The notes under the pieces are model-generated. The model did not search any database, was not told the DNA's origin, and saw nothing but the letters and a program-made list of their open reading frames with translations. Below are positions 5,386 to 57,545 of a stretch of 57,545 nt of DNA, one piece after another (within the stretch, counting starts at the first letter, position 1; the number at the start of each line of letters is the position of its first letter). The position numbers and the translations under genes are program-made. This stretch comes from Tricharina praecox (taxonomy: Eukaryota): assembly GCF_024521635.1 (NCBI RefSeq), contig NW_026250450.1, positions 62,001 through 119,545 of the forward strand, given 5' to 3'.

Positions 5386-5660
5386 GGTATAAGCTGTCCA
5401 GTGTCGATCCAGCACCGGAAGTTATTCACGCAAACAAGATGCGATACTACCAGTAGATGACCACAAACGTGCCTCAACCGGACCGGTGATAACCCTTGAG
5501 CAGCAGTAGCAGCTTCGTGCGTAGAAAATCATTCATCAATGCTTCGCTATAATGACCTCTGAGGTCCTCTGTAAAGTTTCAACCCTTATCCCCTGCCGAT
5601 AAGAGTACCACTGGGGCTCATTTGAGAATGGATACTAATTGCCGGGCACGGCCCACGCAG
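5386..5660. repeat. Dispersed degenerate repeat (copy 1); homologous to ~12953-13285 and partly to ~6492-6612
   Basis: Shared blocks such as AAGCTGTCCAGTGTCGATC, AGTAGATGACC, ATCCCCTGCCG..AAGAGTACCACTGG and GGATACTAATTGCC. Confidence 0.75.
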
Positions 5661-6444
5661 CAGACCGTGACTAGGTGAAAAGAGCACGGCGGTTGCAATC
5701 ATAGAGTAGCATCACGGTTCTTCGTTTTGCTGTCCCGCTCATGCGCTGCTCCACGTATCCTCCTCCGTACTAAACATGATTCTGCATTCCAACATCATAG
5801 ATGTCTTTGTCGTCTTCACATGTTTTCTTGCTTTCGCGAGGAGAGTGGTACGTTCAAAGTTGTTCGTCAGCGTCTACTCATGAGCCGTAGATAGCGCTCA
5901 TGCGGCTGTCAAACCCAGCTACACAATTACAGTTATCTTAGATTATGATGAATCCTGAACGCGTACGTAGATTGGGTGAGAGTATCATGCCTCGAATCCG
6001 ACTAGATACAAAAGAAGCGTAGGAGGCCAGTCACTCCGTCTTCATGACTGGCAAAGTAACTTAGCAACGAACGACTCGATATTACAATTTACAACAATGT
6101 CCTTACGTGCTAACTCGAGTGATATCCCATGCCCTCAATGAATCCGGTAATGCACGCGGGATGAGAGTTTCCGTATTCATTGCTCACGGTTCTACTATCA
6201 TAATCTTCGCCCTCTGTCTGTCCATCTTCCGAGCGTACAATCACCCCGCCCTCCCACTCCTTGCACATCGTCGTCCACTCATACGTGGAGCTCATACAAC
6301 TGTCAAACCGCGCCACACGGTTGTCTGTTGGATGTTGATCTATCATGAATGAGTGTACCTATTTTATGAGACAGTCTTAAGTCTTGACCCGAGGAGAGAT
6401 AAAAGAGGTGCACTATTCCAGTGCCCACCCTCGTCATGCCTGAC

Positions 6445-6495
6445 TCAGGAAAGTCACGAGTAATGACCTCAGGAACGTCACGAGTAATGACCTCT
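6445..6495. repeat. 24-bp tandem duplication (CTCAGGAAxGTCACGAGTAATGAC x2)
   Basis: Directly visible in the sequence. Confidence 0.8.
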
Positions 6496-7094
6496 GAAGA
6501 GTACCATCCGGGCTCGGCTCAGGATGGATACTAATTGCCAGCCACGCCCCATGCAGCACCCTCCGCGGGGATATGTCTTGCTATGAACGTGATGCCCTCT
6601 CAATCAGGAAAAAACCCTACCGGTGGGTGCGATCAGTCGGTCCTACTGCCTGAACTGAACAGAGTGCGACATACTCCTCGAAAAGGCACCATGAGATATG
6701 ACCACAGCTGTCAATATGTAACAGCAGCTGTCTAGGTGTGATTGCAGCCCGCCATTTGCTACACACAACGTAAGACTCTGACTGAGTAGACGCAGCGGTG
6801 GCTAAAATGATGGCTGCAGTACTCATCAGTCTTGTTAGAACAATCTACATCAATTCTGCCTTCTAAAATCAACTCATCCGTCCAGTCGAACACCTCATCT
6901 CCTCCCACCACATACCGTGATCGCGTACAATTTGAACATCATTTCGTCGAATGTCTTCTTCTTTCTCGGTAGTTTGAATTGTCTGTGGTATTATGTCTCC
7001 TCCTTGCTTTCACGTTCCCATTCTCTCCAGACTCTAGTATTATCGCCCCTCCTTGCTTTCGTGTTCCCACATGTGAAATGAACCTAACTTGCCG

Positions 7095-10000
7095 TTAGTC
7101 TTTGTAAAGTCCCCTGATATCATGCACGCTCCGTAGAATCTTACCTCTCGTACTTTCCCCAACATCTTCTATCCGCACGGTCACCGAGCCTCCCACCGCC
7201 CAAGAATAATCTGAACCCAAATCTATGGACATCATTTTAAAAACAAGTCTGAATCCAACTATAGCAGGCGTGCCGATGAACCTTATTTTAAACAACGATG
7301 CCATGCGCACTCCGCAGATGGTGCCGGACGGAGCCGCTGTTCCTGTTGAAGCAGCTGCGCTTGTCGAGTCAGTGCTTGTCCAGCTGCAGCTCTCCTGCAA
7401 ACAATCTATCTGCTTGCCATCTTTCCCAAGATGGCGGTAGGAGCGATTGACGAGATCACAGCACCCGAGTGCCGCTCGGCCCCAAGTGATTTTCCAGGGG
7501 TCGTGGCGGGGGGGCATCGCACGCGAGCGAGGCCGAGTTCGACAATTGGATCAGCTCCCTCAGATCTTTTAGTGACCTAATAGACGTGAGTCTGTCGCAA
7601 CTATATCTGGTGTTGTCATACGTGCATTCAATGCACTTGGCCCGTGAGTGGCATGTGTAGTATTCTGTAATGAACCCTCGTTCGACATCGGCATTCTTGC
7701 TAGTCATGAATGCCCTCACAGGCGGAAAGTCTTCGCCGTTCGGAGGCCATTGAAGTCTCTTCAGTCGGGTGATTTGCAACAGCATCTTAATCGGGTCGAC
7801 GTTCGTCACAATGTCACACACCAGTCCTTTACGGGAGTAAGTGATGCCGGACACAAACGTATCCTGGACGCAACAAAGGGTGCCCGCCACCCCTCTCCCC
7901 CCTTCCCCCCCTCCCCTCCACCCCCACCCGCAGGTGGAGTGGTGGTATTCATCCCCGCGGAACATTGCGGCTTGCCACAGCTGTGGCGGGCGCAGGATCT
8001 CAATCCTCACGCCCAATGGGGCCTGCTCGTGGCGGTTCCCCTTGTGACCATCTGGGAGCGAGCCCTAGGTCCTCGTCCTCCCGGCAAAGTGGGCGCAGAA
8101 TCTCAATCCTCACGCCCAAAGGGGCCCACTCGTGGCGGTTCCCCTTGTGACCAACAGGGCGCGAGCACTGCGTCCTCGTTCTGCCGGCAAAGCGGCCGCA
8201 GCCATGTTTAGCACTATCGCGCTGTTAGTTGCGAGGCAGAGGAGGTGGGAGAGTGTGACATACGAACACTTGCCATGCGGTGGCGGGCGCAGGATCTCAA
8301 TCCTACAACCCAGAGAGGCCCGCTCGAGACGGTTCCCCAAGCCACCGACAGGGCCTACTTGCTAATCTTGATGTCGTCGCTTGCGCCGGTGGTGACAGGC
8401 TGAGAGGGAAGTCGTCCTCCCGAATACAGCCGCCCTCGTGGTCCTTTGTTCAAGTTTGTCAGTTATATGCGTGTACTCGGGGGGGAAAGGGGTGGTGCGA
8501 TACCCTGTTTGCAAGTGTGTTTCACTAGAGGGGGAACCAGACATGGTGAATGAAGTAAGATGTTGGTTGCGTTGTGGTCTGATGGTATCGATGCGTGATG
8601 TCGATGAGTAAAATACCCAAGGAGAACGTAACTGCTACTGTTTTCGTTTGGTCGCGGATGTTAGAATGGTCAGCGGATGTTGGGAGCCACGCCCGTGTAA
8701 GGTACTCATTATGGCTCGGAATACCGGCAATGTATTTCAGCTGAACAGTCACGAGGTTCGGCCGGAACCTGTAACATGGGTGGTTGCCACTCGCCGCCGG
8801 ATTCCCACTGCCGACTGGAGCCATTTCCTGCAATGGGTGGGACCGAGTGACGGGCATGATGGTTGTCGTGGTTTCGAACGCTTGCCACGGCTGTGGTGGG
8901 CGCAGGATCTCAATCCTCACGCCCAAAGGGGCCCGCTCGTGGCGGTTCCCCTTGTGACCATCAGGGAGCGAGCCTTGGGTCCTCGTCCTCCCGGCAAAGT
9001 GGGCGCAGAATCTCAATCCTCACGCCCAAAGGGGCCCGCTCGTGGCGGTTCCCCTTGTGACCAACAGGGCGCGAGCCCTGGGTCCTTCTACTCCCCGCAA
9101 AGCGGTCGCAGCCAGGTTGAGTACTATCGTGTTGTTAGTTGTGAGGCAGGAGGTGGGAGAGTGTGACATACGAACACTTGCCATGCGGTGGCGGGCGCAG
9201 GATCTCAATCCTGCCACCCAGAGGGGCCCGCTCGTGGCGGTTCCCCAAGCCACCGACAGGGCCCACTTGCTAATCTGGATATCGTCGCTGGCACCGGTGA
9301 TGACAGGGCTGAGAGGGAAATCGTCCTCCCGAATAAAGCCGCCCTCATGGTCCTTCATTCAAGTTAGTCAGTTATATGCGTGTACCCGGGGGGAAGGGGT
9401 TGTGCGGTACCCTGTTGGCGAGATTATTAATCCAGTAAAATGGTCGGCGGATGGTGAGGAGCCACACAAACGTGAGGTACTCATTCGGGCTCGAGATTCC
9501 GGTGAACTCTTCTAGATTGAGGGTGACGAGGTGTAGCTGCAACGTGACGGAAACCACCATGCCGGAAGGATGCGATACCCCCTGCGGAACATATGGGTAC
9601 GTGCGACTCTTTCCCGGATTTCGCTTTCCACTGGATTGTTGACCTTTGATCCTGCGTGGAATCCATACCGGGCCAGGATCTCAGGGCCGGCGTCGTTACC
9701 GACCCAAGCGCGGATGGTATTGAGAGGGAGTCCATTGATCTTCAATGAGTTGATTTCGAAATCGATGCGGATTGTGGCAATGTGGTAATGGATCGCTAGG
9801 ATCTGTTCTTCGAGCTTTGCTATCCTTCGAGCGGCCCACTTGCTAATATTATTGTCATCACTGGCTCCGGTGGTCACAGGGCTGAGTGGGAAATCGTTCT
9901 CCAGAATGAAGCCACCCTCATGGTCCTTCATCTTAATCCTGATGCCCTAGGGGCCCGCTCGTGGCGGTTTTCCTGGTTCTTACATACCCAGCGACGTTCA

Positions 10001-10552
10001 ACCTTGACCGTGACTGGGTCCCCATGCTGCCAGATGATAGAGGTTAGCTTCTGCAGGCCTGCGGTCTGCGCAGGTGCCGGTTCCGCAACTGCTATGTTTG
10101 GATCCAGCGTGGTCCGGACCCTGTGGTACACCATCTTGCTTAGGATGTGGTCGGGGGACGCAATCACAACTCCAGCCGTAAGTTTGCGTGCTCCCACCTG
10201 TCTGGGATCGAGTTTTATTTTAGTAATCCGCCCTGTCCCACGACCAAGACGCGGGAAAGGAATTTTGCCGGCTCCTCTATGCTTGACCGGAGGGTAAAGT
10301 CGATGACCGACAAGGAAATGGTGGTGACAGTGCCCTTGACGATCTTGACGAGTTTGATGACGTAAGTCTCTGTGATTCTCGGGAGCTTGATGATGATGGC
10401 CAGGAGCTCTTCGGTGATCTTGCCGACCTTACAGTCCCAACCGTCGTCGGACCTACGGGGCGATTAGCGAAAAGAAGAGCTACAAGTGACTCAGAGTCGG
10501 AAAAAACTTGCATGCGTTCGATTGAGCTGTTCATTGTTGCGGACGAAGACAA
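7095..10552 (-). pseudogene. Decayed, internally duplicated multi-exon gene(s) of an unrecognised family
   Basis: Paralogous peptide blocks (DHEGGFIxExDFPLSPVxTGASDD; LVTxxLxxxxGIxSxNEYLTxxWL) differ mostly at synonymous sites. Intron-like GTATGT...ACTAAC...AG segments are present. Frameshifts and stops lie between blocks. Confidence 0.5.
7988..9971 (-). repeat. Cluster 1 of a ~54-nt double-hairpin/peptide module (copies at 7988, 8091, 8285, 8898, 9001, 9193, partial at 9930) inside a ~910-bp higher-order tandem duplication
   Basis: The + strand consensus is GGGCGCAGGATCTCAATCCTCACGCCCAAAGGGGCCCGCTCGTGGCGGTTCCCC. The block ~7970-8510 recurs at ~8880-9420. Confidence 0.9.
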
Positions 10553-12952: not shown

Positions 12953-13285
12953 GTAAGCTGTCCAGTGTCGATCAGGCAGGAGGATCTTTCGACGGAAACT
13001 GGATGCGATATTGCAAGTAGATGACCCCAACGTGACTCGATCAGACCAGGGATATCCATTGAGGAGCGGAAGCAGCTTCACGCGTAGAGAGGGAGTAGTT
13101 GATACTTGGCTATGGTGACCACGGAGGTTCTCTGTAGAAAAATTCAACCCCCATCCCCTGCCGTCAAGAGTACCACTGGACCTCGGATCAGGATTGATCC
13201 CGGTTGAAGGGCACGCCACGCGCACCACGCTCCACACTGTTATGTCTTGCTATGAACTTGATGCCCTACTCTATTTCAGAAAAAT
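12953..13285. repeat. Dispersed degenerate repeat (copy of 5386-5660 and 6492-6612)
   Basis: Same shared blocks as copy 1, plus TATGTCTTGCTATGAAC(T/G)TGATGCCCT shared with ~6572-6600. Confidence 0.75.
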
Positions 13286-13989: not shown

Positions 13990-16560
13990 GATTGGAAGAT
14001 TTTCTTCCTCGCCGGCAGACATTCCGTGATTGCAAGAAGCTCAAGGCACCATGGGGACCCCGGCCCCCTGGCGTTGCAATGTGAAGGGGGAGCGCAAGAA
14101 CCTCAAGCCACCATGGGAGCCCGGGCCCGTGGGGGTAGCATTTTGAAGGAGGATCGGAAAAAGCTCAAGGCGCCATTGGGGCCCCGGCCCCCTGGGTTGC
14201 AAGGCGAAGGAGGCTCTCAAAAACGTATCAGCAAAGGCTAAGCCTACGCTCTCCTTCTGGAGGCTCGTCACCCTACACTCCCGCTACTATCATCCATACT
14301 AACTAACATTCTTGACGCATAGGGGAAGAAGTCCTCGACCGAGAAGAAAAGATTGCGCGGCTTCGTCGGCCCAGCTGGAACAGGACGTTGACAGTGAAGA
14401 CGACGAATTTTGACTTCGTCTAATGTGCAAAATGATCAACTTGGTACTACTCGGCGACTGAAGATCCACAAATACCACTAGTGGGTGGACTCGACATCCA
14501 CAACTACGACTAGTGGGTGGTTGCTGGTGTCGCTGTCGAGAACAAGCACCGACGGGCCTGCATCGACGAGGTCAAGAAGCTGAAGGCTGGTAAGTTTGCC
14601 CTCGGACCACCTCATACCTCACGAACAAACAACCCTAACACGCTCACAGAATGGGAAGAGTAGGGACGAGTTCTTCAGAAGGAGCGGCTCACTTTTCCCG
14701 GCATTGCCGGAAGACCAGTTTCGACTGGTACCACCAGCGATGGTGGGTAAGGGGAGGAGGTGGAGGGGGAAGAGGATGAGGTGGAGGTGGAGGAGGTCTG
14801 GGGGTGGTGGTGGATGGGAAAGAGGAAGAGGTGGAGGTGGAGGAGGTCGACGGGGCCGAGCCCGCTGGACGAGGCCGGCCAAGGACGTTGATTCGCTGGG
14901 CTGAGATGAAATTGTAAGTCAACTCTTGGTACTATGTTTGCTGCATGAGCTGATGATCTCAGCCAAATCCGCGAGTTTCACTTGCTCTTTGAGAAGCACT
15001 CGAAGCTACTAGTCAAGTACGCGCGCACAATAAACGATCCGGATAGCGACTGGACGGATCTAACGAACAAGAACTTTATCAACATGATGGTCAACGTCCT
15101 ACGTTACGACGAGAATACCTCGGCTGAGAAGAAAATGGGGATTAATCCTACCATTTTGCATGAGTCTGCCCGTGCATTGACCACGCTGCCGGCCGATAGC
15201 CGAGAAATCTGGGCTATCAATAGGGCCCTGATCGAGGTGTGGCACGATGGCAGGCCCCTCAGGCGCGCCGACAGCTCGGTGCCGCCGAAGAAAGCTCCGG
15301 CGAATCAAATGAGAGGGAAAGCTCTCCTTCAGCAAAAACCAGGAAGCGATTGCCCTGCAGGTTTTGAAGGAGAGGGAAAGCTCTCCTTTCAACAAAAACC
15401 AGGAAGCGATTGCCCTGCAGGTTTTGAAGGAGAGGGAAAGCTCTCCTTTCAACAAAAACCAGGAAGCGATTGACCTGCAGATTTTGAAGGAGAGGAGAAC
15501 CTCTCCTCCAAAGGGGAACTGATATTCTCCCTCATCTCCACGGGGAGCGATTCCCGTGCAGTGCTAAGGAGGGCAAAATATGCCGTATCCTACCGGTATC
15601 CTCCCAGCCGCACAACATCCGCAGTGATGCTGGCGAGAACTACGAAGACGTTCAAGATGAATGACAAAGAGGCCATCCGCGAGCTGGTGTGGTACGCCGT
15701 CAGTGAGCCATGCGCTATCCGCGAGCTGACAGATTGGATCAAATCCAAGGGCGACTCAGGCATATACCAGCAAGCGATCAGATCCACCCGTCTACTCTTG
15801 GCCCCGGCCTTCCAGCGTCCACGATTAACGCCAACCTTGCGACGGGGTTCCTCATCATCGACGGGTTTTCTGCCCGCCTGCGAACGAGTCCATCAATCCT
15901 CACCAGATTCCAGCGGGCCCGCAAGCTTCAAGCCGGGCAAGGCACCACGGTGTGCCGCAACAGCCCCCGAGCATGCACTTTCCTGGGGCCGCTCACGAAA
16001 GTCGCGAAGCGCAGGAGAGGGTTTCCTCTCCTTCGTGGGCGAACTAATGTTCTCCCTCACCTGCATGGGGAGCGATTCACCTACAGGTTTTGAAGGAGAG
16101 GGAAACCTCTCCTTCAATGGCAACCGCCGTCTCCACTCATCCGTTACCAACCAAAGCAGCCCATTCGACAGAAATCACGAAGAAACCTAACCGACATGCC
16201 CGCAATCCGAAATAAAAAGCGCTGTCGCCGATCCCAGGCTCGTCGCAAGGCCTGTGCGCAAAATCCGCGTTCCTGCGGCCGCCATAGAAAAGGCGCCTGC
16301 TAAGCGAAGGAGAGGCTTTCCTCTCCTGCGCGGGAGAACTGATCCGTCACGGGAATAAGTTCCCCTGCCGGTGACGAAGGAGAGGAAGCCCTCTCCTTCA
16401 GGGGAGAACTGATGTTCTCCCTCACCTGCACGGGAACACGTTCCCGTGCAAGTGTCGAGGTTGTTCGAGCAGCGGAGGACCAGCCGGTCCATGATCGGGT
16501 CTCCACCAACATGGTGCGGGTCGGGATCCTGTCAGCCACAGTAAGTGTCTCTGCTATCTC
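13990..16560 (+). pseudogene. Degenerate multi-exon hypothetical gene with internal repeats
   Basis: Canonical introns (e.g. GTAAGT...CCTAAC...CAG 14590-14649; GTAAGT...GCTGAT...CAG 14914-14962). Coding-like segments at 14982-15310 and 15620-15830. I could not build a continuous frame. Confidence 0.4.
15312..16450. repeat. 60-bp tandem repeat x3 (15312-15490) plus related ~70-bp units at ~15490, ~16014, ~16310 and ~16380
   Basis: Near-perfect copies of AGAGGGAAAGCTCTCCTTTCAACAAAAACCAGGAAGCGATTGCCCTGCAGGTTTTGAAGG. Later units share CTCTCCT..GG(A/C)GAACT(G/A)AT.TTCTCCCTCA. Confidence 0.85.
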
Positions 16561-32082: not shown

Positions 32083-32425
32083 TTACCACACTGCGAGGAC
32101 TACCGCCGTTGCTACCCCAACAACGATCGCAATGCCGGCTGCCTGCCGGCCGACTCCGTTGCACCATGATCTTTGTCGGTAGGTCGAACGTCGGCGGGTA
32201 AAACGTAGGAAGTGCTGGAATGTCAACCGTTGGCATCTTCAACGTGGGTAAGGTGATATCGGGTGTGTCGATGGTGATGGGTGCGCCTAGGTCAATAGCC
32301 AAAGGGTGATCAAGGATGTGGCCGCCACCGTGGACGTGAGTGGGCGGGACACTGTCTGGGTTGGCAAGCGCCGAGACTGATGCTGCAACAGCGGAGATGA
32401 CTAGTAGGGCGGTGTACTGCATCAT
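32083..32425 (-). pseudogene. Small secreted/GPI-type Pro/Thr-rich protein, frameshifted paralog of 54424-54822
   Basis: Signal peptide MMQYTALLVISAVAASVSALA. The hydrophobic tail NGVGRQAAGIAIVVGVATAVVLAVW* is 1 nt out of frame relative to the intact paralog. Confidence 0.7.
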
Positions 32426-33343
32426 TCGGTTTATCGCGAGATCGCAGGGTGCCATGGGATGAGGTGAGGGTGTGGACTGGGGAGTGCGGTGAACGGAGAT
32501 ATAGTCTTTGGTGGTATGTGCATCTTGAATCTTCCGGCGAAAGGAGGGGTAATCTGAGACTTGGCCACGGGCATCTTGACGGTGAAGGAAAATGATCCGT
32601 GTGCTTGTTACCATACAATGCACATGTGGAATCCTGATTTGAACTGAACCGATGATCGGTGGTGGCAGATACGAGTATTTTGATAGTTATTGAAAGAGGT
32701 CTTGAAGTTGATACATGCAGTGGGAGACTGGATACAGGACTGGCCGTTGCAACACGGATGGAAGGATAGATTATGAAAGGTTGAAGGAGATGCGGTGATG
32801 TTGCCTCTGTATGATCCCGTGCGGTTCTCATCGGCCAGCCACATAGTGTAACCCCAAGATTTCAGAAAGTGGCAGTCGACGTTAATCGACTGCTCTAGTC
32901 CGTGGTAGCAAGATGTTGGACGGACTGACTACCCAAGCCGCTTCATATTGATGACTTTTGGTTCACTAAAGATCGTTTTTCAGATGATATCACTTGTGGA
33001 ATACATCCGGTCAGGAGGTAGAGAGCTGGCGGGGTCATCTTTAGCTCCCTGCGCTAGATGATATACACGAGGGGATATGGGGTTGCACGATTCAGGTTAA
33101 CTACACCTTAGGCACCGGCCGCCGGTGGCCCTCCGAGTCTCCGCGCGCACATCTTCCGGCTTCTCCTATCCCGCACTCTATTTTCTACAGCTTTCTACTC
33201 GCGTACAGTTTGTATTGTAACACGCATCCTGCTCTTCAATCAGGCTTCTCCACTGACGATGCATAAGTTCCTGCCGTCCTTCCTACTCCTCTCGTCGCCA
33301 CACCACCACCTACCTATCTTTCTCCGAGCAAACCACAACCACG

Positions 33344-49069: not shown

Positions 49070-49599
49070 TGTAGCAGATTTGTAACTGTTATGCGAAAGT
49101 TGCAGCTGCTGATGTGAGTTTGTAAATCGTTCTGATATCAGATTTTTGAATATTGTTAAAGCTGAAGTTTGCTCGGAAAGTTGGAGGAATCCATATCAGT
49201 TCTGTCCTTGAGATATACCAGGGTTCTTGCTGCTCATCTTGACGGGGGGAGGCTGCATAACTTGAATATTTCGCGCGGCTCTCACAATTCAAACGGAGTG
49301 AAATTCTATGGTTGGTAGCCACCGCAGCAACTGTGCTCAATCACGGGTTTGCGCGTACGTGCCCTATAAGTGGGTAGGGCTATGCCCGACGTGACTGCGC
49401 TCCAACTATTTAAACAGCTCCCCCCCCCCCACACACACACACACACAAACTTCAACTTGTCCATCTCATCTTTTTTCGTTTTTTTCATCTCTTCAACATT
49501 CCGCTCATCACACTACCATCACTAATCACTACCACCACAATAATTCCTCGTTCCAACTATTTCTATTCTATACTCCACCTACAACAGCAATCATTTTCT

Positions 49600-51150
49600 C
49601 GTGAGGACCCAACAGCGGCCCCCCATAGGCGTGAGGATTTAGATCCTGCGCCCGCCATAGCTGTGGTATGCCGCAATACGCGGCTAATCCGTAAGTTACA
49701 CATCCCCCTCACTCTTCTGACTAGAAATTAACAGCGTGATAGCGGTCAATAGGGCTGCGGCCCCTTTGCCGGGTGACTCGCCACTCAAGACTCACTCTTC
49801 GCCGACGCGGAGCAAGAAACGGAGTTGCCATAACCACTGTTGGCCACCGACAACTGGACCATAGGTTCGGCACCCTCAATCTTCTTCCTCTTCTTCTTGG
49901 TTACTGCCGAGCGCACAAACACTCCTGTTTGTCATGCGGGCAGCAGCCGTGCTTGTTCGGGTGCTTTTCTATGGCAAGATTGCGTACTTTTCAGGAACAA
50001 TGGATAAGACAACCACCTGGCGCTGGAATCATTAAATCACACGCCCTCCCCCCTCATCTGACTAGAAACTAACAGCGCGATAGCTATGAACTGGGCTGCG
50101 GCCCCTTCTCCGGGAGATCAAGTATTGCGGCAAGCTTTGCTCGGGCCATGTTGGTGGCTTGGGGAACCGCCACGAGCGGGCCCCTTTGGGCGGAAGGATT
50201 CAGATCCTCCGCACGCCACCGCATGCCCAGTATTCGTATGACACACTCTCTCAGCCCCTCCGTGGGCACACGGTTAGACCTTCGCCTGAGGACCCACCGA
50301 GCTCCGGTCCATCTCAGGATCTGTTTGCCACATGGGGAACCGCCACGAGCGGGCCCCATGGGGCGTGAGGATCGAGATCCTCCGCCCGCTACAGCTGTGG
50401 CAAGCATCCGTAAGCAACAAACACACCCTCCACATGTGCCTCGCAACTAACTGCGCGATAGTGGTGATGGGCCAGCGGTGGAAATCCGGCCAAGAGTGGG
50501 GGCCACCCGTGTTACTGGTTCCGGCCAAACCTCATGACTGTTCAGCTGGAATACATCACCGGTATTCCGAGACCCAATGATTACCTGACACTGGCGTGGC
50601 TCACCGACATGCGCGGACCATTCTTTTGGATAAACACACTTGCAAACAGGGTACCGCACAGCCCCTTCCCCTCGTGTACATGCATATAACTGACTAACGT
50701 GAATGAAGGAGCCAGTTCGGAACTGTCGGCTTGAACTTCGAAGCTGCTGTATCTCCACAGTACGATTGGCAGCGAACTGCCTACATGAGTGCTCTTGCCG
50801 GTGGCTTGGGAACCGCCACGAGCGGGCCCCTCTGGGTTGCAGGATTGCGATCCTGTGCCTGCTACTGCCGTCGGAAAGAAGGCATTTTAAAATTGAAAGC
50901 CGTAGAAGTTGTTCCATCAGCTGGACTCGATGATCGGGGAAATTATTGGCATCGGTTCCTAGATAGGGAATACCGTGGAGTCGCTGGATCCTGACACCGA
51001 TAAGGATCCTGATGCGGATAGGATGGCCCCCTCCAGTCCCCGCACCACTACTGCCGACGCCGAGCGCATCCTTCTTCTAGAGCAACTCGCTCAGGTCGAG
51101 GCCAAACGTGTCGGTGGCTTGGGGAATCGCCACGAGCGGGCAACTTTGGG
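49600..51150 (+). repeat. Cluster 2 of the ~54-nt module (degenerate at ~49600; 50161, 50334, 50808; partial at 51121), inverted relative to cluster 1
   Basis: GGGGAACCGCCACGAGCGGGCCCCxxxGGG..AGGAT....ATCCT..GCCC copies, plus shared flanking modules (e.g. GGTTCCGGCC.AACCTC.TGACTGTTCAGCTG.AATACAT and CACACTTGCAAACAGGGTA). Confidence 0.85.
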
Positions 51151-51758
51151 TAAAGGGGGGACAAGTTGGAGGACGTACCGTTTCCGAACATTCCTTGTCC
51201 AAAAGGGAGAGGACGGCTGGTTAGTCGCAGTCATTTTTGTAGCTGCAGTAGTTAGATTACCACGATTTGCTCGAATAATTTAAGTTCATGTTTTCTATCT
51301 TCTTGTGTTCAATATAGCTACCGAATATCATATTTGCGGGTGGCGGCCGACGGCACATGCCGACGCGAGAGTGTGTCAAACGTTTGTGGCTGATCAAATG
51401 AATGTGTAGATGATAAGATGGTATTATCAATGATTATGTTATACGCCTCGTATCGGGCTGCGAATCTTCTTTTCATACAGTTGATGCTCCAGTAGGGGAA
51501 GCCCCCTATCCGTTTATACAGGCGTCACGGGTCCGCGGCACTCTGTGGCTACCATCTCACTCCAACCATGTCACCGAAGCTTCGGGTCTTCCTCTCTGTA
51601 CGTCTATTCTGACTGGAAAGAGGGAGTGAAGGTCGACAGTATAGTTTAATTTTGCGTTCACCGTGATGTTGCTCCAACGTATACATCTGTCATATGTAGA
51701 CATCCGATCGATCCCAGAGAGTCCTGGCGGTGGAGGAGCTCTCGCCGGAGGTAGCGCC

Positions 51759-54144: not shown

Positions 54145-54216
54145 GCTTGTGTAGTGTAGTGGTTAGCACGTCGGATTTTGATTCCGGAGTCCTCAGTTCA
54201 AACCTGGGCACGAGCT
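54145..54216 (+). tRNA. tRNA-Gln (anticodon TTG), intronless
   Basis: Cloverleaf with acceptor GCTTGTG/CACGAGC, D arm GTGT/GCAC, anticodon arm TCGGA-TTTTGAT-TCCGG and T arm CTCAG-TTCAAAC-CTGGG. A T-run (Pol III terminator) follows. Confidence 0.93.
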
Positions 54217-54423: not shown

Positions 54424-54822
54424 CTACCACACTGCTAGGACTACCGCCGCCGCCGCTCCAACAACCATCGCGATGCTGGCTGTCTGCCTTCCAAGCCCGT
54501 TGTGCCAGTGAACTGTTGGTAGGTCGAACGTCGGTACGTCGAACGTCGGTACGTCGAACGTCGGTACGTCGAACGTCGGTACGTCGAACGTCGGCGGGTA
54601 AACTGTCGGAAGTGCAGCAATGTCAATCGTTGGAATCTGGAAAGTGGGTGAGGTGAGGTTGGGTAAGTCCATGGTGATGGGTGCGCCTAGGTCGATAGCC
54701 AAACCGTCATCAAGCAGCTGGTCACCGCCGTGGACGTGAGTGGGCGGGGCAATGTCTGGGTTCGCAAGCGCCGAAATTGATGCTGCAACAGCGGGGATGA
54801 CGAGGAGGGTAGTGTCCTGCAT
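54424..54822 (-). CDS. Small secreted/GPI-type Pro/Thr-rich protein (132 aa) with PTFDV tandem repeats
   Basis: Signal peptide MQDTTLLVIPAVAASISALA. 15-bp tandem repeat x5 (PTFDV/L). C-terminal NGLGRQTASIAMVVGAAAAVVLAVW is a GPI-like signal. Confidence 0.75.
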   Translation of the reverse strand: MQDTTLLVIPAVAASISALANPDIAPPTHVHGGDQLLDDGLAIDLGAPITMDLPNLTSPTFQIPTIDIAALPTVYPPTFDVPTFDVPTFDVPTFDVPTFDLPTVHWHNGLGRQTASIAMVVGAAAAVVLAVW

Positions 54823-57545
54823 TATTCGTGTTATTGCGAGATCGCAGGGTGCCATGAGATGAGGTGAGGGTGTGGACCTGGGAGTGCGGTGAACGGAGAT
54901 ATAGTCTTTGGTGGTATGTGCATCTTGAATCTTCCGACGAAAGGAGGAGAAACCTGAGACTTTGCCACGGGCATCTTGACGGTGAAGGAAGAAGATCCGT
55001 GTGCTCGCTACTGTAGACAAATGAAACCATGATTCAAACTGAACCAACCGGATCACACCTTCCAGTGGCCACAGTCGCTTTGGCGTCATGTAGCAAAGTT
55101 TCAAACGAGCTGATTTGTATGTAACATGTATGGATAACGGCCGATGATCTCACTACGTAGCGTCAGAAAGCGCGCAGACTAGCAGCAATTCAATTGTGTT
55201 TCTTCATCGTTGATCCAATTTCAGTTGGCTAGGTACATACCTCATCGCAGTACATAAACCTCTCCATCCGGCTGCAGTCTGACTCTGGATGCAGCATGGC
55301 ACCGACAGCCGACTAGATGCAACACTGAGTGATAGCCCCGACACCTCCGTGTCGTCCCCGCCAGAAAAGTGGATCCCGATATTCAACCGAATGGTATTCG
55401 TGCGTGCTGCAGTGACCGATATCCGTGATGACGAAGCCGATAGACGATGGACCTCCGCCGAAAGAACGGAGGATAAATCGAGGGTAGCTGCGAAGGCCGC
55501 AAAAATTCCATTTGCCGTGCACTATCTTGGTCCGAGATCACAGTTGACACGAACGGCGAGGACCTGTTAATTATGGCCTAGGCGGCTTCCCTTCCCTACA
55601 GGTCTGCTCCTTTGTATCCGACTATGCTAGATTCCGGCGAATGGCTCTCCCGCACTATCACTAGGCCAACAGGTCAGCAATGTATCCACAACAGCAGGAG
55701 CAACCGGTGCACCGACATCGGGAGACATATACCATTCCTCTCATGTGTCACTCTGAAGGTTCCTGAAGAACTGCGATACTGGCATGGGCTGTTCGTTTGT
55801 TTCCGTCGGTTGCAATCCCAGATTTCAAGCCAGGTCAATTCCGCATCGGCGCGAAAACTCTCGATCTCTGAGATGGCACAGACGCCGCCGGCCGGTATAG
55901 CAGCGAGATCATCGATATCAACGATCATGAGATGTAACTCTAGTACTACTGATCGCCAAGGTTGAAGCAGTCGAAGATTCACCGTGATTGAATGGTTGTA
56001 ATCACGTTGCAAGCGGTCTCGCCATACCCATTGTCACTCCTCCTCTAGGGCTATGCGAGGGCAGACTGTATGAGCAGCACGTGGATGAGGTACGTGCATG
56101 TGTGCGGGAATATCAGCACATGTTTAGGTGACGGTCACGTGCGCATGTGGGCTCGGGTTGCGTTCGCCCTGCAGTGACATCGTTTATTGTTATGAGGTCG
56201 ACGTAGTTGAGGTCAACGCTAGCCACTCGCGCGGGCGACGGCGAAAATCTTTCAACCCTTGCGGCTCTAAAACACATATAAAAGACCCTCCCCCCGCTAC
56301 TTCTTCTCTCCTTCTCCTCACAACAATCACAACTTCTTCCTCGACAAAATCTGTCGCGACATAAACACTTCACCATTCGTGCAACCCCATCACGATCTCG
56401 CTGTCAAACCAGAACGCTCGGGATTGTCAACCCCTTTTTACTTCCTTCTCTCCCACTTCCTTTTCCCCCTTCGTTTGGCCTCTTCCAGGCGACCACACCA
56501 CCAGACAATTACACAACCAGACGGTCACCAGGCAATTGGAAACCATGATCGCCGTCTCCCTTGTACTGTGGGAAACAAGTTTCCCCACTACAACTGGGCC
56601 TCGGCCCAGGTACTGGTAGACCGGCAACAAGCCTCGGTCCCGTGCTTGGTGGACGTGTACTGAGTGACGCAGAAATACTACACGCGGCGGAGAAATATTA
56701 CACGCGGCGGAGAAGCCGCGGTCCTCGGACACCGAGGAAACACAAGAAGTATAACTTGCTTTACCGCAAGTTATACGGGGTGGTTTTCTTCCTTTCACGC
56801 GAAAGCGGAAAGGTCTTTCTTCCTGGCCATGTGTGAGTTACTTCGCATGGCCAAATCCAAATGTTGTTGCTCTGGCCGCTGCGCGAGGGAATGATATTGG
56901 ATTAATTGACGCAGTCGAGATCTCCGGGTGCGAGCGGGATACAGCGCGAAATTGACTTCACGAATTCGCTGTTACTAGTTGGTTCTACCTCCAAAACCGC
57001 AGGTCTGGTTCGCGTTCACTGCGAGAATGAACAAAGGTAGTCGCTAGGGGGGCGCCAACACACAAGTTCTCCTGTGTCGGTACCGGGAGAGGAGCCTTAC
57101 GCGCACGATCACCGCACACATAGATGAATTAGCCGTCTAAATAAGCTGGTTATTGATACCTCCACCGCCCACGGCGGCCGGAAAGCGAGATATAACTATG
57201 GTGTTTAGCGTGTATATACCGGTACCGTGTAGTTATCACAGCTACAGTCAATAGATAGTTCTATAGTATAAAAAGCGGCGGCCGCCGGCGGGGAAAGATC
57301 CCGCTCTACAGCCAATCGGCCAGTAGCCGGCGTCGACACCTCCTATATCACTCACATCCCCGTCGCCGCCGATGTCAAGAAAAGTGGTATCCTGAATTAG
57401 GGTACAGTGTATCAGACACCACAGGTGAAAATGTAATTGTATAGAGGCGCGGGGGTGCCTCGGATGCAGGCCGCTCGCCACCTCAGTGAGAACGGATAAC
57501 GGAAGTCTCTCAACATAGAGAGTAATCTCGCATGATGCGGTACAA

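Follow-up and report, generated by a model that had tools for sequence, protein, structure and literature searches.

Rickettsia palindromic elements and the 'byp' or GC-cluster insertions of yeast mitochondria are GC-rich hairpin repeats within open reading frames (ORFs), where the frame is often preserved. These elements belong to bacteria or mitochondria, are clear insertions and are found across many unrelated genes. The stem-loops that localise the ASH1 mRNA of yeast are structured cis-elements in a coding exon and carry a double constraint. Introner-like elements of fungi are described as multi-copy sequences tied to spliceosomal introns with a stable predicted secondary structure (PMC3609843).

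Here we describe a 54-base module that is repeated in a 57,545-nucleotide stretch of DNA (the window) from the cup fungus Tricharina praecox. It is a real exonic hairpin module of unproven function in an array of duplicated cassettes, and it is undescribed: literature searches listed no account of such a module. As in same-gene intron duplication, represented by fungal mini-exon and short-intron cassettes, an exon piece and a spliceosomal-type intron of ~50 nt have been copied together at one locus, and the copies decay at different rates. In contrast to that system, the best-kept part here is a three-hairpin exonic module and not the intron, and an inverted second cluster lies 40 kb away. The array shares with introner-like elements a multi-copy sequence that is tied to spliceosomal introns and has a stable predicted fold, but the structured module lies outside the intron, 21-37 nt upstream of the donor, the associated introns (48-52 nt) are not longer than regular introns, and the copies known within the window belong to one gene family only. 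Like Rickettsia palindromic elements and yeast GC clusters, the modules are GC-rich, hairpin-forming repeats inside ORFs; unlike them, they have no simple insertion site with restored flanks and are confined to one family. The ASH1 stem-loops are comparable as in-ORF structures whose variation appears limited to changes that both pairing and protein tolerate, whereas here a single cassette holds as many as three copies of the module. Finally, miniature inverted-repeat elements (MITEs) resemble the module in length (below 100 nt) and in strong folding, and some module copies bear a terminal inverted repeat; 8 of the 12, however, lack this repeat, and neither a target-site duplication nor an unrelated insertion site was found in the window.

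Module copies and host gene

The window contains 12 copies of the module, seven on the minus strand at 7988-9973 (cluster 1) and five on the plus strand at 49.6-51.2 kb (cluster 2). A pattern search and a covariance model thus confirm the count of seven plus about five given in the initial annotation of this DNA. The pattern of hairpin A (24 nt, up to 3 mismatches) finds 11 matches, compared with 0 in 100 shuffles, and the twelfth copy, at 49598-49653, keeps hairpin B together with a remnant of A. The covariance model, built from 10 copies, recovers its own members at 56-108 bits and the two copies left out of it at 25.7 bits (51109-51212) and 18.4 bits (9876-9984). Three of the 12 modules (m7, m8 and m12) are partial. 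All 12 are oriented with the sense strand of the exons of a single gene family and lie within fragments of that family, with none in an unrelated context across the 57.5 kb.

7988-8041, minus strand: module m1, type 2; hairpins A and B, then a small hairpin C at 7971-7987; 103.3 bits
8091-8144, minus strand: module m2, type 3; 94.9 bits
8285-8338, minus strand: module m3, type 1; outer stem CGGTGGC/GCCACCG; 92 bits
8898-8951, minus strand: module m4, type 2; in frame with the ORF of exon a, whose MPVTRSH start is ~35 nt downstream; 108.3 bits
9001-9054, minus strand: module m5, type 3; found by pattern, fold and covariance model
9193-9246, minus strand: module m6, type 1; Y junction with outer stem at 9186-9256; -44.4 kcal/mol, z -4.2
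9930-9973, minus strand: module m7, partial; hairpin A and half of B (its 5' side), running into full exon b at its start; 18.4 bits
49598-49653, plus strand: module m8, partial; A remnant, full B (loop UUAG) and hairpin C; 56.2 bits
50161-50214, plus strand: module m9, type 1; outer stem; z -3.3
50334-50387, plus strand: module m10, type 2; z -4.9
50807-50860, plus strand: module m11, type 1; 1-nt deletion, outer stem damaged; 76.1 bits
51121-51150, plus strand: module m12; hairpin A only, in frame with an upstream exon-b-like ORF; 25.7 bits

Searches with the 20-22-nt core of hairpin A gave no match in prokaryote genomes or viral contigs. The sole match, in the high-GC metagenome contig L001, is taken as chance because the likeness is limited to a 20-mer.

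Cluster 1 lies inside the NCBI gene model BZA05DRAFT_449503 (P0001), a hypothetical protein on the minus strand. The gene is an orphan with only two detectable relatives, P0002 and P0008, and pieces of its family within the window are confined to the two module clusters. The ORF at 9512-9946 (minus strand) is 100% identical to P0001, and all 500 residues of the protein can be placed on 10 exons separated by 9 GT-AG introns between 10134 and 8003. The model needs 39-nt micro-exons as well as introns that run through modules, with intron starts at GTGGGC or GTGAGG within them, and it is only by way of these module-cutting introns that its frame is restored.

8003-10134, minus strand: gene model BZA05DRAFT_449503 (P0001); 10 exons, 9 GT-AG introns, 3 of which cut through modules
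9644-9946, minus strand: full exon b (KDHEGG...ARYGF); 60% identity to P0002, 40% to the T. praecox paralogue P0008
9411-9581, minus strand: exon a, full copy (..NEYLTFVWL..FYWINNLANR)
9267-9352, minus strand: truncated exon b' (DHEGG..ISK), breaking off into module m6
8617-8857, minus strand: exon a copy with start MPVTRSH; 3' end decayed
50463-50650, plus strand: exon a copy of cluster 2, without ATG; TGA at the splice junction

The P0001 family matches no Pfam family at or above its cut-off. The best ESM Atlas match, to DUF6589 clusters (score 0.83), is below a meaningful level, with a pLDDT of 0.36 for the protein's own model, and was rejected. A transposase domain was found neither in the 10 ORFs at the two clusters nor in the 20 longest ORFs elsewhere in the window, three of which belong to ordinary, other families. 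Descent of the module from exon b was also considered and set aside as speculation resting on marginal local alignments: the TGAGATCCTG-GCCC match is equalled in 3 of 300 shuffles and that of the module 5' flank to the DHEGG start in 7 of 300, and the other modules do not rise above shuffles. Contigs of uncertain kind from four soil runs cover the locus in part and show three joints, two of which go back while one, in a 151-nt contig, skips from 8304 to 9027. None of these contigs is joined across a mini-intron, and they are silent on expression and splicing.

Cassette structure and mini-introns

The duplicated exon-intron cassette contains a segment of 85-92 nt, and within this segment the module evolves most slowly. 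In order, the cassette has exon a followed by a 58-nt intron and truncated exon b; next come a type-1 module carrying the outer stem, the 48-nt mini-intron and a linker, then a type-3 module, another linker and a type-2 module with a third, small hairpin, after which exon a recurs. It has been multiplied by two tandem duplications, of 103 nt and 909 bp, and by an older segmental duplication, inverted and 40 kb distant, and blastn aligns the two clusters in colinear blocks of 71-76% identity. A duplicated exon, one of the options raised in the initial annotation, is therefore borne out in that the copies lie within tandem and segmental exon-intron cassette duplicates of an annotated orphan gene.

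7970-8515, minus strand: unit 1 of the duplicate with 909-bp period
8880-9422, minus strand: unit 2 of the same duplicate; 91% identical to 7970-8515
8896-9111, minus strand: 103-nt tandem duplication (linker and module, 2.1 copies), with a twin at 7986-8201

The intron-like segments that had been noticed after several modules are six homologous copies of a mini-intron, of which four retain donor, branch site and acceptor and two are decayed. The intact copies have the donors GTATGT (twice), GTAAGC and GTAAGT, a branch site ACTAAC or ATTAAC, and GATAG. Modules end 21-37 nt upstream of the mini-intron donor, and they share no donor on their upstream side.

9124-9171, minus strand: mini-intron after m6, 48 nt, GTATGT..ACTAAC..GATAG; intron 5 of the NCBI model
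8214-8263, minus strand: mini-intron copy after m3; intron 9 of the NCBI model
50410-50461, plus strand: mini-intron copy after m10, GTAAGC..ACTAAC..GATAG
49691-49742, plus strand: mini-intron copy after m8, GTAAGT..ATTAAC..GATAG
50031-50083, plus strand: decayed mini-intron copy; donor lost, ACTAAC and GATAG kept
50236-50290, plus strand: decayed mini-intron copy after m9; GTATGA, without branch site or acceptor, end approximate

Frameshifts, stop codons and the 103-nt period show that decay has reached much of the array, and splice signals have been lost as well. Most rearrangement junctions of the array fall at modules, and the duplication boundaries lie at module edges. These junctions suggest that the module may have served as the 'duplication or recombination seed' that had been proposed for it. 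At the DNA level, the inverted repeats nested within it would promote slippage as well as unequal exchange, which would explain why most array junctions are found at modules.

Conservation of the module

Between the clusters, the module is identical at 147 of 162 positions (90.7%), compared with 328 of 467 (70.2%) in five pooled flank segments (p=4e-8), in agreement with the earlier impression that it is better conserved than its surroundings. The same direction is seen between the 909-bp duplicates (154/162 in the module, 298/335 in the flanks, p=0.03). The exception among the flanks is the 3' part of intron 2, which is as conserved as the module (42/46). The 100-300 nt adjoining the modules have diverged to 55-81% identity, while core identity is about the same, about 90%, between all module pairs. 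In the tree of modules, copies group by type across clusters, with a support of 99/98 for the type-1 clade and 4 changes of the cluster label in each case. Conversion within clusters is thus not the cause of the module's uniformity, and the type grouping, together with 91% module against 70% flank identity, points to constraint rather than homogenisation as the probable source of its slow divergence.

Repeat-induced point mutation (RIP) was considered for the C-to-T changes and rejected because transitions do not dominate: 71 transitions (38 C/T and 33 A/G) stand against 95 transversions outside modules. The C/T to A/G ratio is 7:1 in stems and 38:33 in flanks, a difference that is not significant (p=0.13).

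Fold and base pairing

Minimum-energy structures reproduce hairpins A and B as initially described, and in the folds of 9182-9257 (minus strand) and 50149-50224 (plus strand) the Y junction is closed by the outer stem. This stem, CGGTGGC/GCCACCG, had been attributed to several copies; it is intact only in m3, m6 and m9 and damaged in m11. The loop of hairpin B varies in the way already listed, with UGAG in m1-m6 and UCAG, CGAG, UGCG or UUAG elsewhere. Fold z-scores range from -2.1 to -4.9 on the sense strand and from -0.5 to -3.8 on the antisense strand, and are -2.8 and -1.9 with the third hairpin included. Among 5,748 80-nt windows in a GC-corrected scan, module windows rank 11th, 22nd, 28th and 36th.

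All statistics of this analysis rest on 9-12 paralogous copies and on tests chosen after looking at the data; on this basis, stem variants keep pairing in 7 of 11 cases against 17% expected (p=0.0006), or against 21.5% when the expectation is weighted by the transition share of the flanks (p=0.003). Pairing is kept through G-U. Variant states are concentrated at the 18 unpaired sites of the 54-nt core (12/23 against 33% expected, p=0.048). No compensatory double change was found in hairpin A or B among the copies. Pair changes on both sides are restricted to the outer stem, in alignment A1, or to hairpin C, where they amount to one event common to m2 and m5. A1 has 2 such pairs against a shuffle mean of 3.0, and its paired fraction of 80.9% equals the shuffle mean of 80.9% (equalled in 303 of 500 shuffles). 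In alignment A2, which includes hairpin C, both of the 2 pairs are in that hairpin, and the covariation score is equalled in 38 of 500 shuffles; paired cells with hairpin C reach 91.3% versus 89.5% in shuffles (equalled in 14 of 500). The 3' flank of m2 and m5, itself unrelated, likewise folds into a hairpin in the place of hairpin C. Strand preference is weak, with 10 G-U versus 4 A-C variant states (p=0.18) and 210 versus 200 of 230 paired cells on the sense and antisense strands. The proposal of a structured RNA or single-stranded DNA element, and the check for covariation that went with it, therefore come out in part: true covariation is absent from A and B, while stem variants retain pairing via G-U, and a constraint on RNA structure is suggestive only.

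A second, unrelated triple-hairpin family is present in the window at 15.3-16.5 kb (z -9.2). It lies within an otherwise open reading frame of ~410 codons, with a tandem repeat of 60 nt that is in frame.

Reading frame

In the GNRHERAPLG frame, 7 of 12 variants at unpaired sites are synonymous, against 26% expected (p=0.017), and 10 of 23 over the 54-nt core (p=0.06). Across the 70-column element, this frame, with 13 synonymous to 23 non-synonymous variants, is not distinct from the other frames (9:27 to 11:20), and three of the six frames of the consensus module are open. The earlier statement that many changes are synonymous is matched by an excess at unpaired sites only.

From a reading of ORF tables, six of nine junctions carry the module frame on into an adjacent ORF (p=0.04): m7 with the upstream 166-aa ORF and also with exon b, m4 with exon a, m1 with a 202-aa ORF, m12 with the ORF upstream of it, and m6 across the intron into m5. 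No single frame stays open through successive repeats of the array. It is broken by the 103-nt period, by a +1 shift between exon b' and m6 or m3, by the 173-nt spacing of m9 and m10, by a TAG in m8, by a frameshift in m7 and by a TGA after the m10 intron. Among database proteins of 101-2000 aa, the module peptide occurs only in P0001 and is absent from P0002 and P0008. The option of a repeated peptide is in a similar position, favoured by the synonymous excess at unpaired sites and opposed by the broken frame and the restriction of the peptide to P0001; coding constraint in the GNRHERAPLG frame is likewise no more than suggestive.

Known RNA families and editing

In gathering mode, Rfam finds only a tRNA in the whole window, at 54145-54216, which ARAGORN also reports, as tRNA-Gln. 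In E-value mode, the region 7900-10100 gives two ClpQY_promoter matches of 14.2 bits (gathering score 42, E=5.9). The view that the module is no recognised ribozyme or riboswitch holds up, with no Rfam family at gathering threshold and nothing that supports either. A tRNA or tRNA-derived SINE head was rejected, as ARAGORN finds only the tRNA-Gln at 54145, and so was a 5S-like or tRNA-like Y junction, which neither ARAGORN nor Rfam recognises. Although the stem that closes the Y junction is 7 bp long, the junction bears only two arms. Fungal A-to-I editing is reported to favour hairpin loops in which position -1 is U, and to recode UAG (PMC11156358). UAG occurs in loop B of m8 only, and in the other loops G or C precedes the A.

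Discussion

The reading that we favour, and to which we give an even chance of being correct, is that the slowest-evolving part of a duplicated exon-intron cassette in an orphan gene would be a transcribed, selected exonic hairpin element. The module would be transcribed as exon sequence and maintained by selection on that transcript, with the pairing of A and B preserved by G-U-tolerant changes, and the frame ..GNRHERAPLGxRIEILRP would once have been translated, as it perhaps still is in some copies. Its position, 21-37 nt upstream of a donor or ~35 nt upstream of the exon a ATG, makes a cis-acting exonic structure that affects splice-site use or translation of its own mRNA the most likely role.

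Two other explanations keep part of this evidence, and both appear unlikely to us. The hairpins and Y junction could be a purely structural RNA or single-stranded DNA motif, with the frame a by-product of GC-rich, stop-poor sequence and the gene model an ab initio artefact. Fold z-scores down to -4.9, pairing kept in most stem variants, variation gathered in loops and linkers, the hairpin re-formed by the unrelated flank of m2 and m5, the three open consensus frames, the micro-exons and module-cutting introns of the NCBI model and the unrelated triple-hairpin family in the same window would all suit such a motif. However, it would be one without covariation, strand preference or an Rfam match. 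The synonymous excess at unpaired sites also speaks against it, as does the near invariance of loop A and the bulges, for which structure alone gives no reason. Alternatively, the palindromes could be neutral, kept uniform by short gene-conversion tracts or recent copying and acting only as fragile, slippage-prone DNA. The visible decay of the array, the duplication boundaries and several junctions at module edges, and the roughly equal core identity across all pairs are in line with this. Conversion tracts of 54 nt would nevertheless be unusual beside so diverged a neighbourhood, the modules group by type and not by location, and neither pair-keeping nor the synonymous bias is expected under neutrality.

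A small non-autonomous mobile element, MITE-like or introner-like and travelling with or beside the mini-intron, would make the clusters a product of insertions and local duplication. It would account for the 7-bp terminal inverted repeat in 3-4 copies, for a core identity that does not scale with flank divergence, for modules at differing junctions and for the further arrangements in soil-run contigs, and the multi-copy introns with stable predicted structures described as introner-like elements offer a precedent (PMC3609843). We nevertheless consider it very improbable, since every copy lies in the fragments of one gene family in a single relative orientation, with none in an unrelated context in the window and no transposase domain in the ORFs searched. 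The module also lies outside the canonical intron and has no common upstream donor, and a consistent target-site duplication is absent: the only candidate, a GCAAGT repeat around m6 and m3, is found in copies of each other and represents one event.

The exonic hairpin element that we favour could also belong to something larger. T. praecox may possess a class of short multi-hairpin modules in reading frames, under a double constraint of RNA pairing and codons and spreading with mini-introns as cassettes, which would make them the nuclear equivalent, in a eukaryote, of in-frame palindromic elements. The presence of both biases in the module, and of a second triple-hairpin family, would agree with a class spread across the genome rather than with an isolated case, yet we regard such a class as quite improbable. 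Should the double constraint not be real, what is left is an ordinary duplication array in decay within a repeat-rich contig, and the BZA05DRAFT_449503 model is to be regarded as doubtful. If the constraint is real, the array would be a compact natural case of exonic RNA structure and reading frame co-evolving beside a duplicating mini-intron, and it would bear on how cassettes multiply in fungi and on the help that hairpins may give in this process.

Copies of the module and their predicted fold

The initial annotation's description of the array matches the sequence of the region, and its seven plus about five copies of the 54-nt hairpin module come to 12 in total by pattern search and covariance model. 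A 24-nt hairpin-A pattern gave 11 matches at three or fewer mismatches and 0 in 100 shuffles, forming cluster 1 (m1-m7) and, together with m8, cluster 2 (m8-m12):

8018-9973, minus strand: hairpin-A matches (n = 7)
50161-51144, plus strand: hairpin-A matches (n = 4)
49598-49653, plus strand: twelfth module copy (m8), with hairpin B kept and a remnant of A

The covariance model, built from ten copies, recovered those ten at 56-108 bits, along with two copies outside its training set (25.7 and 18.4 bits). Of the 12 copies, m7 (A and half of B), m8 (A reduced to a remnant) and m12 (A only) are partial.

Minimum-energy folding reproduced the proposed architecture, with hairpins A and B separated by a 3-nt linker in all copies folded, and a closing stem giving a Y junction also predicted in 9182-9257(-) and 50149-50224(+). 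In type-2 copies (m1, m4, m10), a third small hairpin, GCCAC-NNNN-GTGGC, replaces the outer stem. Fold z-scores were -4.2, -2.1, -3.3 and -4.9 on the sense strand (that of the gene-family exons described below) and -3.8, -0.5, -2.7 and -3.3 on the antisense strand. Among 5,748 80-nt windows scanned with GC correction, those at modules ranked 11th, 22nd, 28th and 36th for stability. The predicted fold is unusual for the window without being unique there.

An orphan gene with a duplicated exon-intron cassette

The ORF at 9512-9946(-) is 100% identical to P0001, the NCBI hypothetical protein BZA05DRAFT_449503 (500 aa) of Tricharina praecox, which belongs to the Pyronemataceae (Pezizomycetes). The full length of P0001 is accounted for by ten exons at 10134-8003(-), separated by nine GT-AG introns in a predicted NCBI model that includes two micro-exons of 39 nt. 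Modules and predicted introns are entangled: intron 1 holds hairpin A of m7; another intron runs from a GTGGGC donor after exon b' to a CAG acceptor within hairpin B of m6, its equivalent at m3 in the second unit using GTAGGC and TAG; and a further one runs from a GTGAGG donor within hairpin B of m5 to AAG immediately before m4. Much of the array is decayed, and the 500-aa product is therefore doubtful.

Pfam searches gave no family for 10 ORFs from the two clusters, and none above cut-off for P0001 or the only two relatives found: P0002 (696 aa, labelled Lyophyllum atratum; 60% identity over exon b) and P0008 (517 aa, a T. praecox paralog on a different contig; 40% identity over 58 aa). These relatives share the order exon a (..NEYLT..WINxLAN) then exon b (DHEGG..ISK.AARRI..GLPLNT..VGNDAG..YGF), and the module peptide is absent from both; among proteins of 101-2000 aa it is carried by P0001 only (one of 11 candidates).

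The gene family in the window has a single close relative, P0002, which is filed under a basidiomycete. Exon b at 9644-9946(-) is 60% identical to P0002 versus only 40% to the T. praecox paralog P0008, and P0003, a further T. praecox protein, shares 77% identity with the C-terminal part of P0002 (aa 471-696). This placement looks like either inter-phylum gene transfer or a Pezizales-derived contig in the Lyophyllum atratum assembly; both species feature in studies of fire-following fungi.

Searches of the window by tblastn and blastn located gene-family pieces in the two clusters only. In sense order, exon a is followed by a 58-nt intron, exon b truncated at ISKWA, a type-1 module (m3, m6, m9, m11), a 48-nt mini-intron, a linker, a type-3 module (m2, m5), a linker, a type-2 module and a second exon a. 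The module lies 21-37 nt before the mini-intron donor or ~35 nt upstream of the ATG in exon a. In cluster 1, a fuller copy (10134-9411) is accompanied by a duplication with a 909-bp period, whose two units (9422-8880 and 8515-7970) are 91% identical and each contain a 103-nt tandem duplication; cluster 2, inverted and 40 kb off, is colinear with it at 71-76% identity. The genes between the clusters are ordinary-looking (aromatic amino acid lyase, ankyrin repeats, DUF3237). The intron-like segments reported after modules proved to be six homologous mini-intron copies; two are decayed, and the remaining four have donor, branch site and acceptor.

A 202-codon stop-free frame at 7456-8064(-) begins in m1 in the peptide frame proposed initially, extends ~180 codons into unique sequence past the end of the NCBI model, has no Pfam family and overlaps a 187-codon opposite-strand frame (7648-8211). 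Immediately downstream of cluster 1, a C-rich low-complexity tract (plus strand, 7880-7940) has very high summed soil-run contig depth, up to 1130 in X4, which presumably stems from unrelated organisms.

Conservation of the module relative to its flanks

The module is better conserved than its flanks, as the initial annotation held. Across the two clusters, identity is 88.9-92.6% in the 54-nt core and 55.4-80.6% in flank segments, with the exception of one short intron 2 stretch (91.3%). Pooled identity was 147/162 for the module versus 328/467 for five flank segments (p = 4e-8), a sixth row, which compares exon a with the fuller copy (68.1%), being excluded because it re-uses the same cluster-2 bases. 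Young duplicates gave 154/162 versus 298/335 (p = 0.03). In a tree of ten full-length rows, modules group by type across clusters (type-1 clade support 99/98; four changes required for each cluster label), and within-cluster homogenisation therefore does not explain the conservation, which probably reflects purifying constraint or conversion acting very locally.

Pairing and coding signals

The tests that follow draw on a handful of paralogs and were picked after data inspection. Covariation was absent. In alignment A1 (12 rows, 25 pairs), the share of paired cells is the same as the shuffle mean (80.9%), and both-sided changes affect 2 pairs versus 3.0 in shuffles. In alignment A2 (10 rows covering all three hairpins, A, B and C), pairing holds in 91.3% of cells versus 89.5% in shuffles, with 14/500 shuffles reaching the observed value, and the covariation score was matched in 38/500; its both-sided changes are confined to hairpin C, where they trace to m2 and m5, mutual copies.

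Across the core in nine A2 rows (m8, which has no hairpin A, was dropped; m7 and m12 are not in A2), we counted 23 distinct variant states, 12 of them at unpaired sites (expected 33%, p = 0.048). Pairing is retained in 7 of the 11 paired-site variants (expected 17%, p = 0.0006; 21.5% with flank transition-share weighting, p = 0.003), all seven being C-to-T changes that make G-U on the sense strand. In the peptide frame proposed initially, 10/23 core states are synonymous (expected 27%, p = 0.06, scoring three states in incomplete end codons as not synonymous), as are 7/12 unpaired-site variants (expected 26%, p = 0.017). On a reading of the ORF tables, 6 of 9 junctions join the module frame in phase to the neighbouring ORF (p = 0.04), and the other three are out of frame. 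Both the structural and the coding reading are weakened by the fact that only three of the seven pair-keeping changes are synonymous, by a synonymous to non-synonymous count of 13:23 for the proposed frame over the 70-column element (9 rows; m7, m8 and m12 dropped), which does not stand out from the 9:27 to 11:20 of the other frames, by G-U versus A-C states at 10 to 4 (p = 0.18) and by similar pairing on the sense (210/230 cells) and antisense (200/230) strands. Structural and coding constraint on the module are each suggestive, and neither is shown.

Other repeats and hairpins in the window

A second hairpin family, unrelated to the module, forms consecutive hairpins at 15310-16452(+): first GGAGAGG-N4/5-CCTCTCC (8 sites versus 0.1 expected), then GGGGAGAAC-TGAT-GTTCTCCC and GCACGGGAAC-AC-GTTCCCGTGC. 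Its copy at 16375-16452 is predicted to form three perfect hairpins (-50.9 kcal/mol, z -9.2) and ranks first in the stability scan of the window; the module covariance model matched it on structure alone (20.7 bits). The hairpins of this family lie inside ORFs 14949-15473 and 15474-16190, split by a single TGA; among them is an in-frame 60-nt tandem repeat that encodes GFEGEGKLSFQQKPGSDCPA. Nearby, a 62-nt tandem repeat (3.2 copies, 14028-14223) containing the palindrome GGGGCCCCGGCCCC is another hairpin-forming repeat. The three-copy dispersed repeat D11/D18 (5573-5662, 6469-6598, 13138-13267; 63-75% identity), which contains a GATACTAAT-like, branch-site-looking sequence, is further evidence of a contig rich in small segmental duplications. 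A 300-nt duplicate, D5 (32175-32474 and 54575-54874, 22.4 kb apart, 85% identity), is adjoined by five copies of a 15-nt tandem repeat, GGTACGTCGAACGTC (54511-54609), near a tRNA gene:

54145-54216: tRNA-Gln

Several 80-nt windows at 56560-56860, adjoining a 20-nt tandem repeat (56671-56714), are also among the most stable (ranks 7, 12, 23, 25 and 26 in the GC-corrected scan).

Discussion

The reading best supported by these results is that an orphan gene's exon-intron cassette has been duplicated. A purely structural element, to which the excess of pair-keeping changes would belong, is unlikely. Neutral palindromes are about equally improbable. Less probable still is a mobile MITE-like or introner-like element: the module lies outside the intron, failing the defining feature of introner-like elements, and fails those of MITEs, having neither a consistent target-site duplication nor unrelated insertion sites in the window. 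No transposase occurs among the Pfam families of the 20 longest ORFs (3/20 had a family).

Comparison with Rfam, proposed in the initial annotation, gave no family matching the module, and no tRNA-like gene was called. Outside the modules there is no RIP signature (71 transitions versus 95 transversions; C/T 38, A/G 33). A 20-22-nt core of hairpin A had no match in prokaryote genomes or in viral contigs, and its one match in metagenome contigs is taken as chance.

The nearest known kind to such a cassette is the duplication of mini-exon and intron cassettes within fungal genes. In-frame palindromic elements are known in Rickettsia and yeast mitochondria; the array is like them in tolerating hairpin repeats in reading frames, and membership is not claimed. 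As DNA, the module's nested inverted repeats may promote the slippage and unequal exchange that built the array, a role suggested by the 103-nt duplication, which terminates at the 3' edge of hairpin B, and by four junctions falling at modules (exon b'/m6, m7/exon b, upstream ORF/m12 and m1/unique sequence). What is new relative to fungal mini-exon and intron cassette duplication is the hairpin module: an exonic three-hairpin element that would be the most constrained part of the duplicated cassette and may act in cis on its own transcript, with splice-site choice or translation as the obvious candidates.
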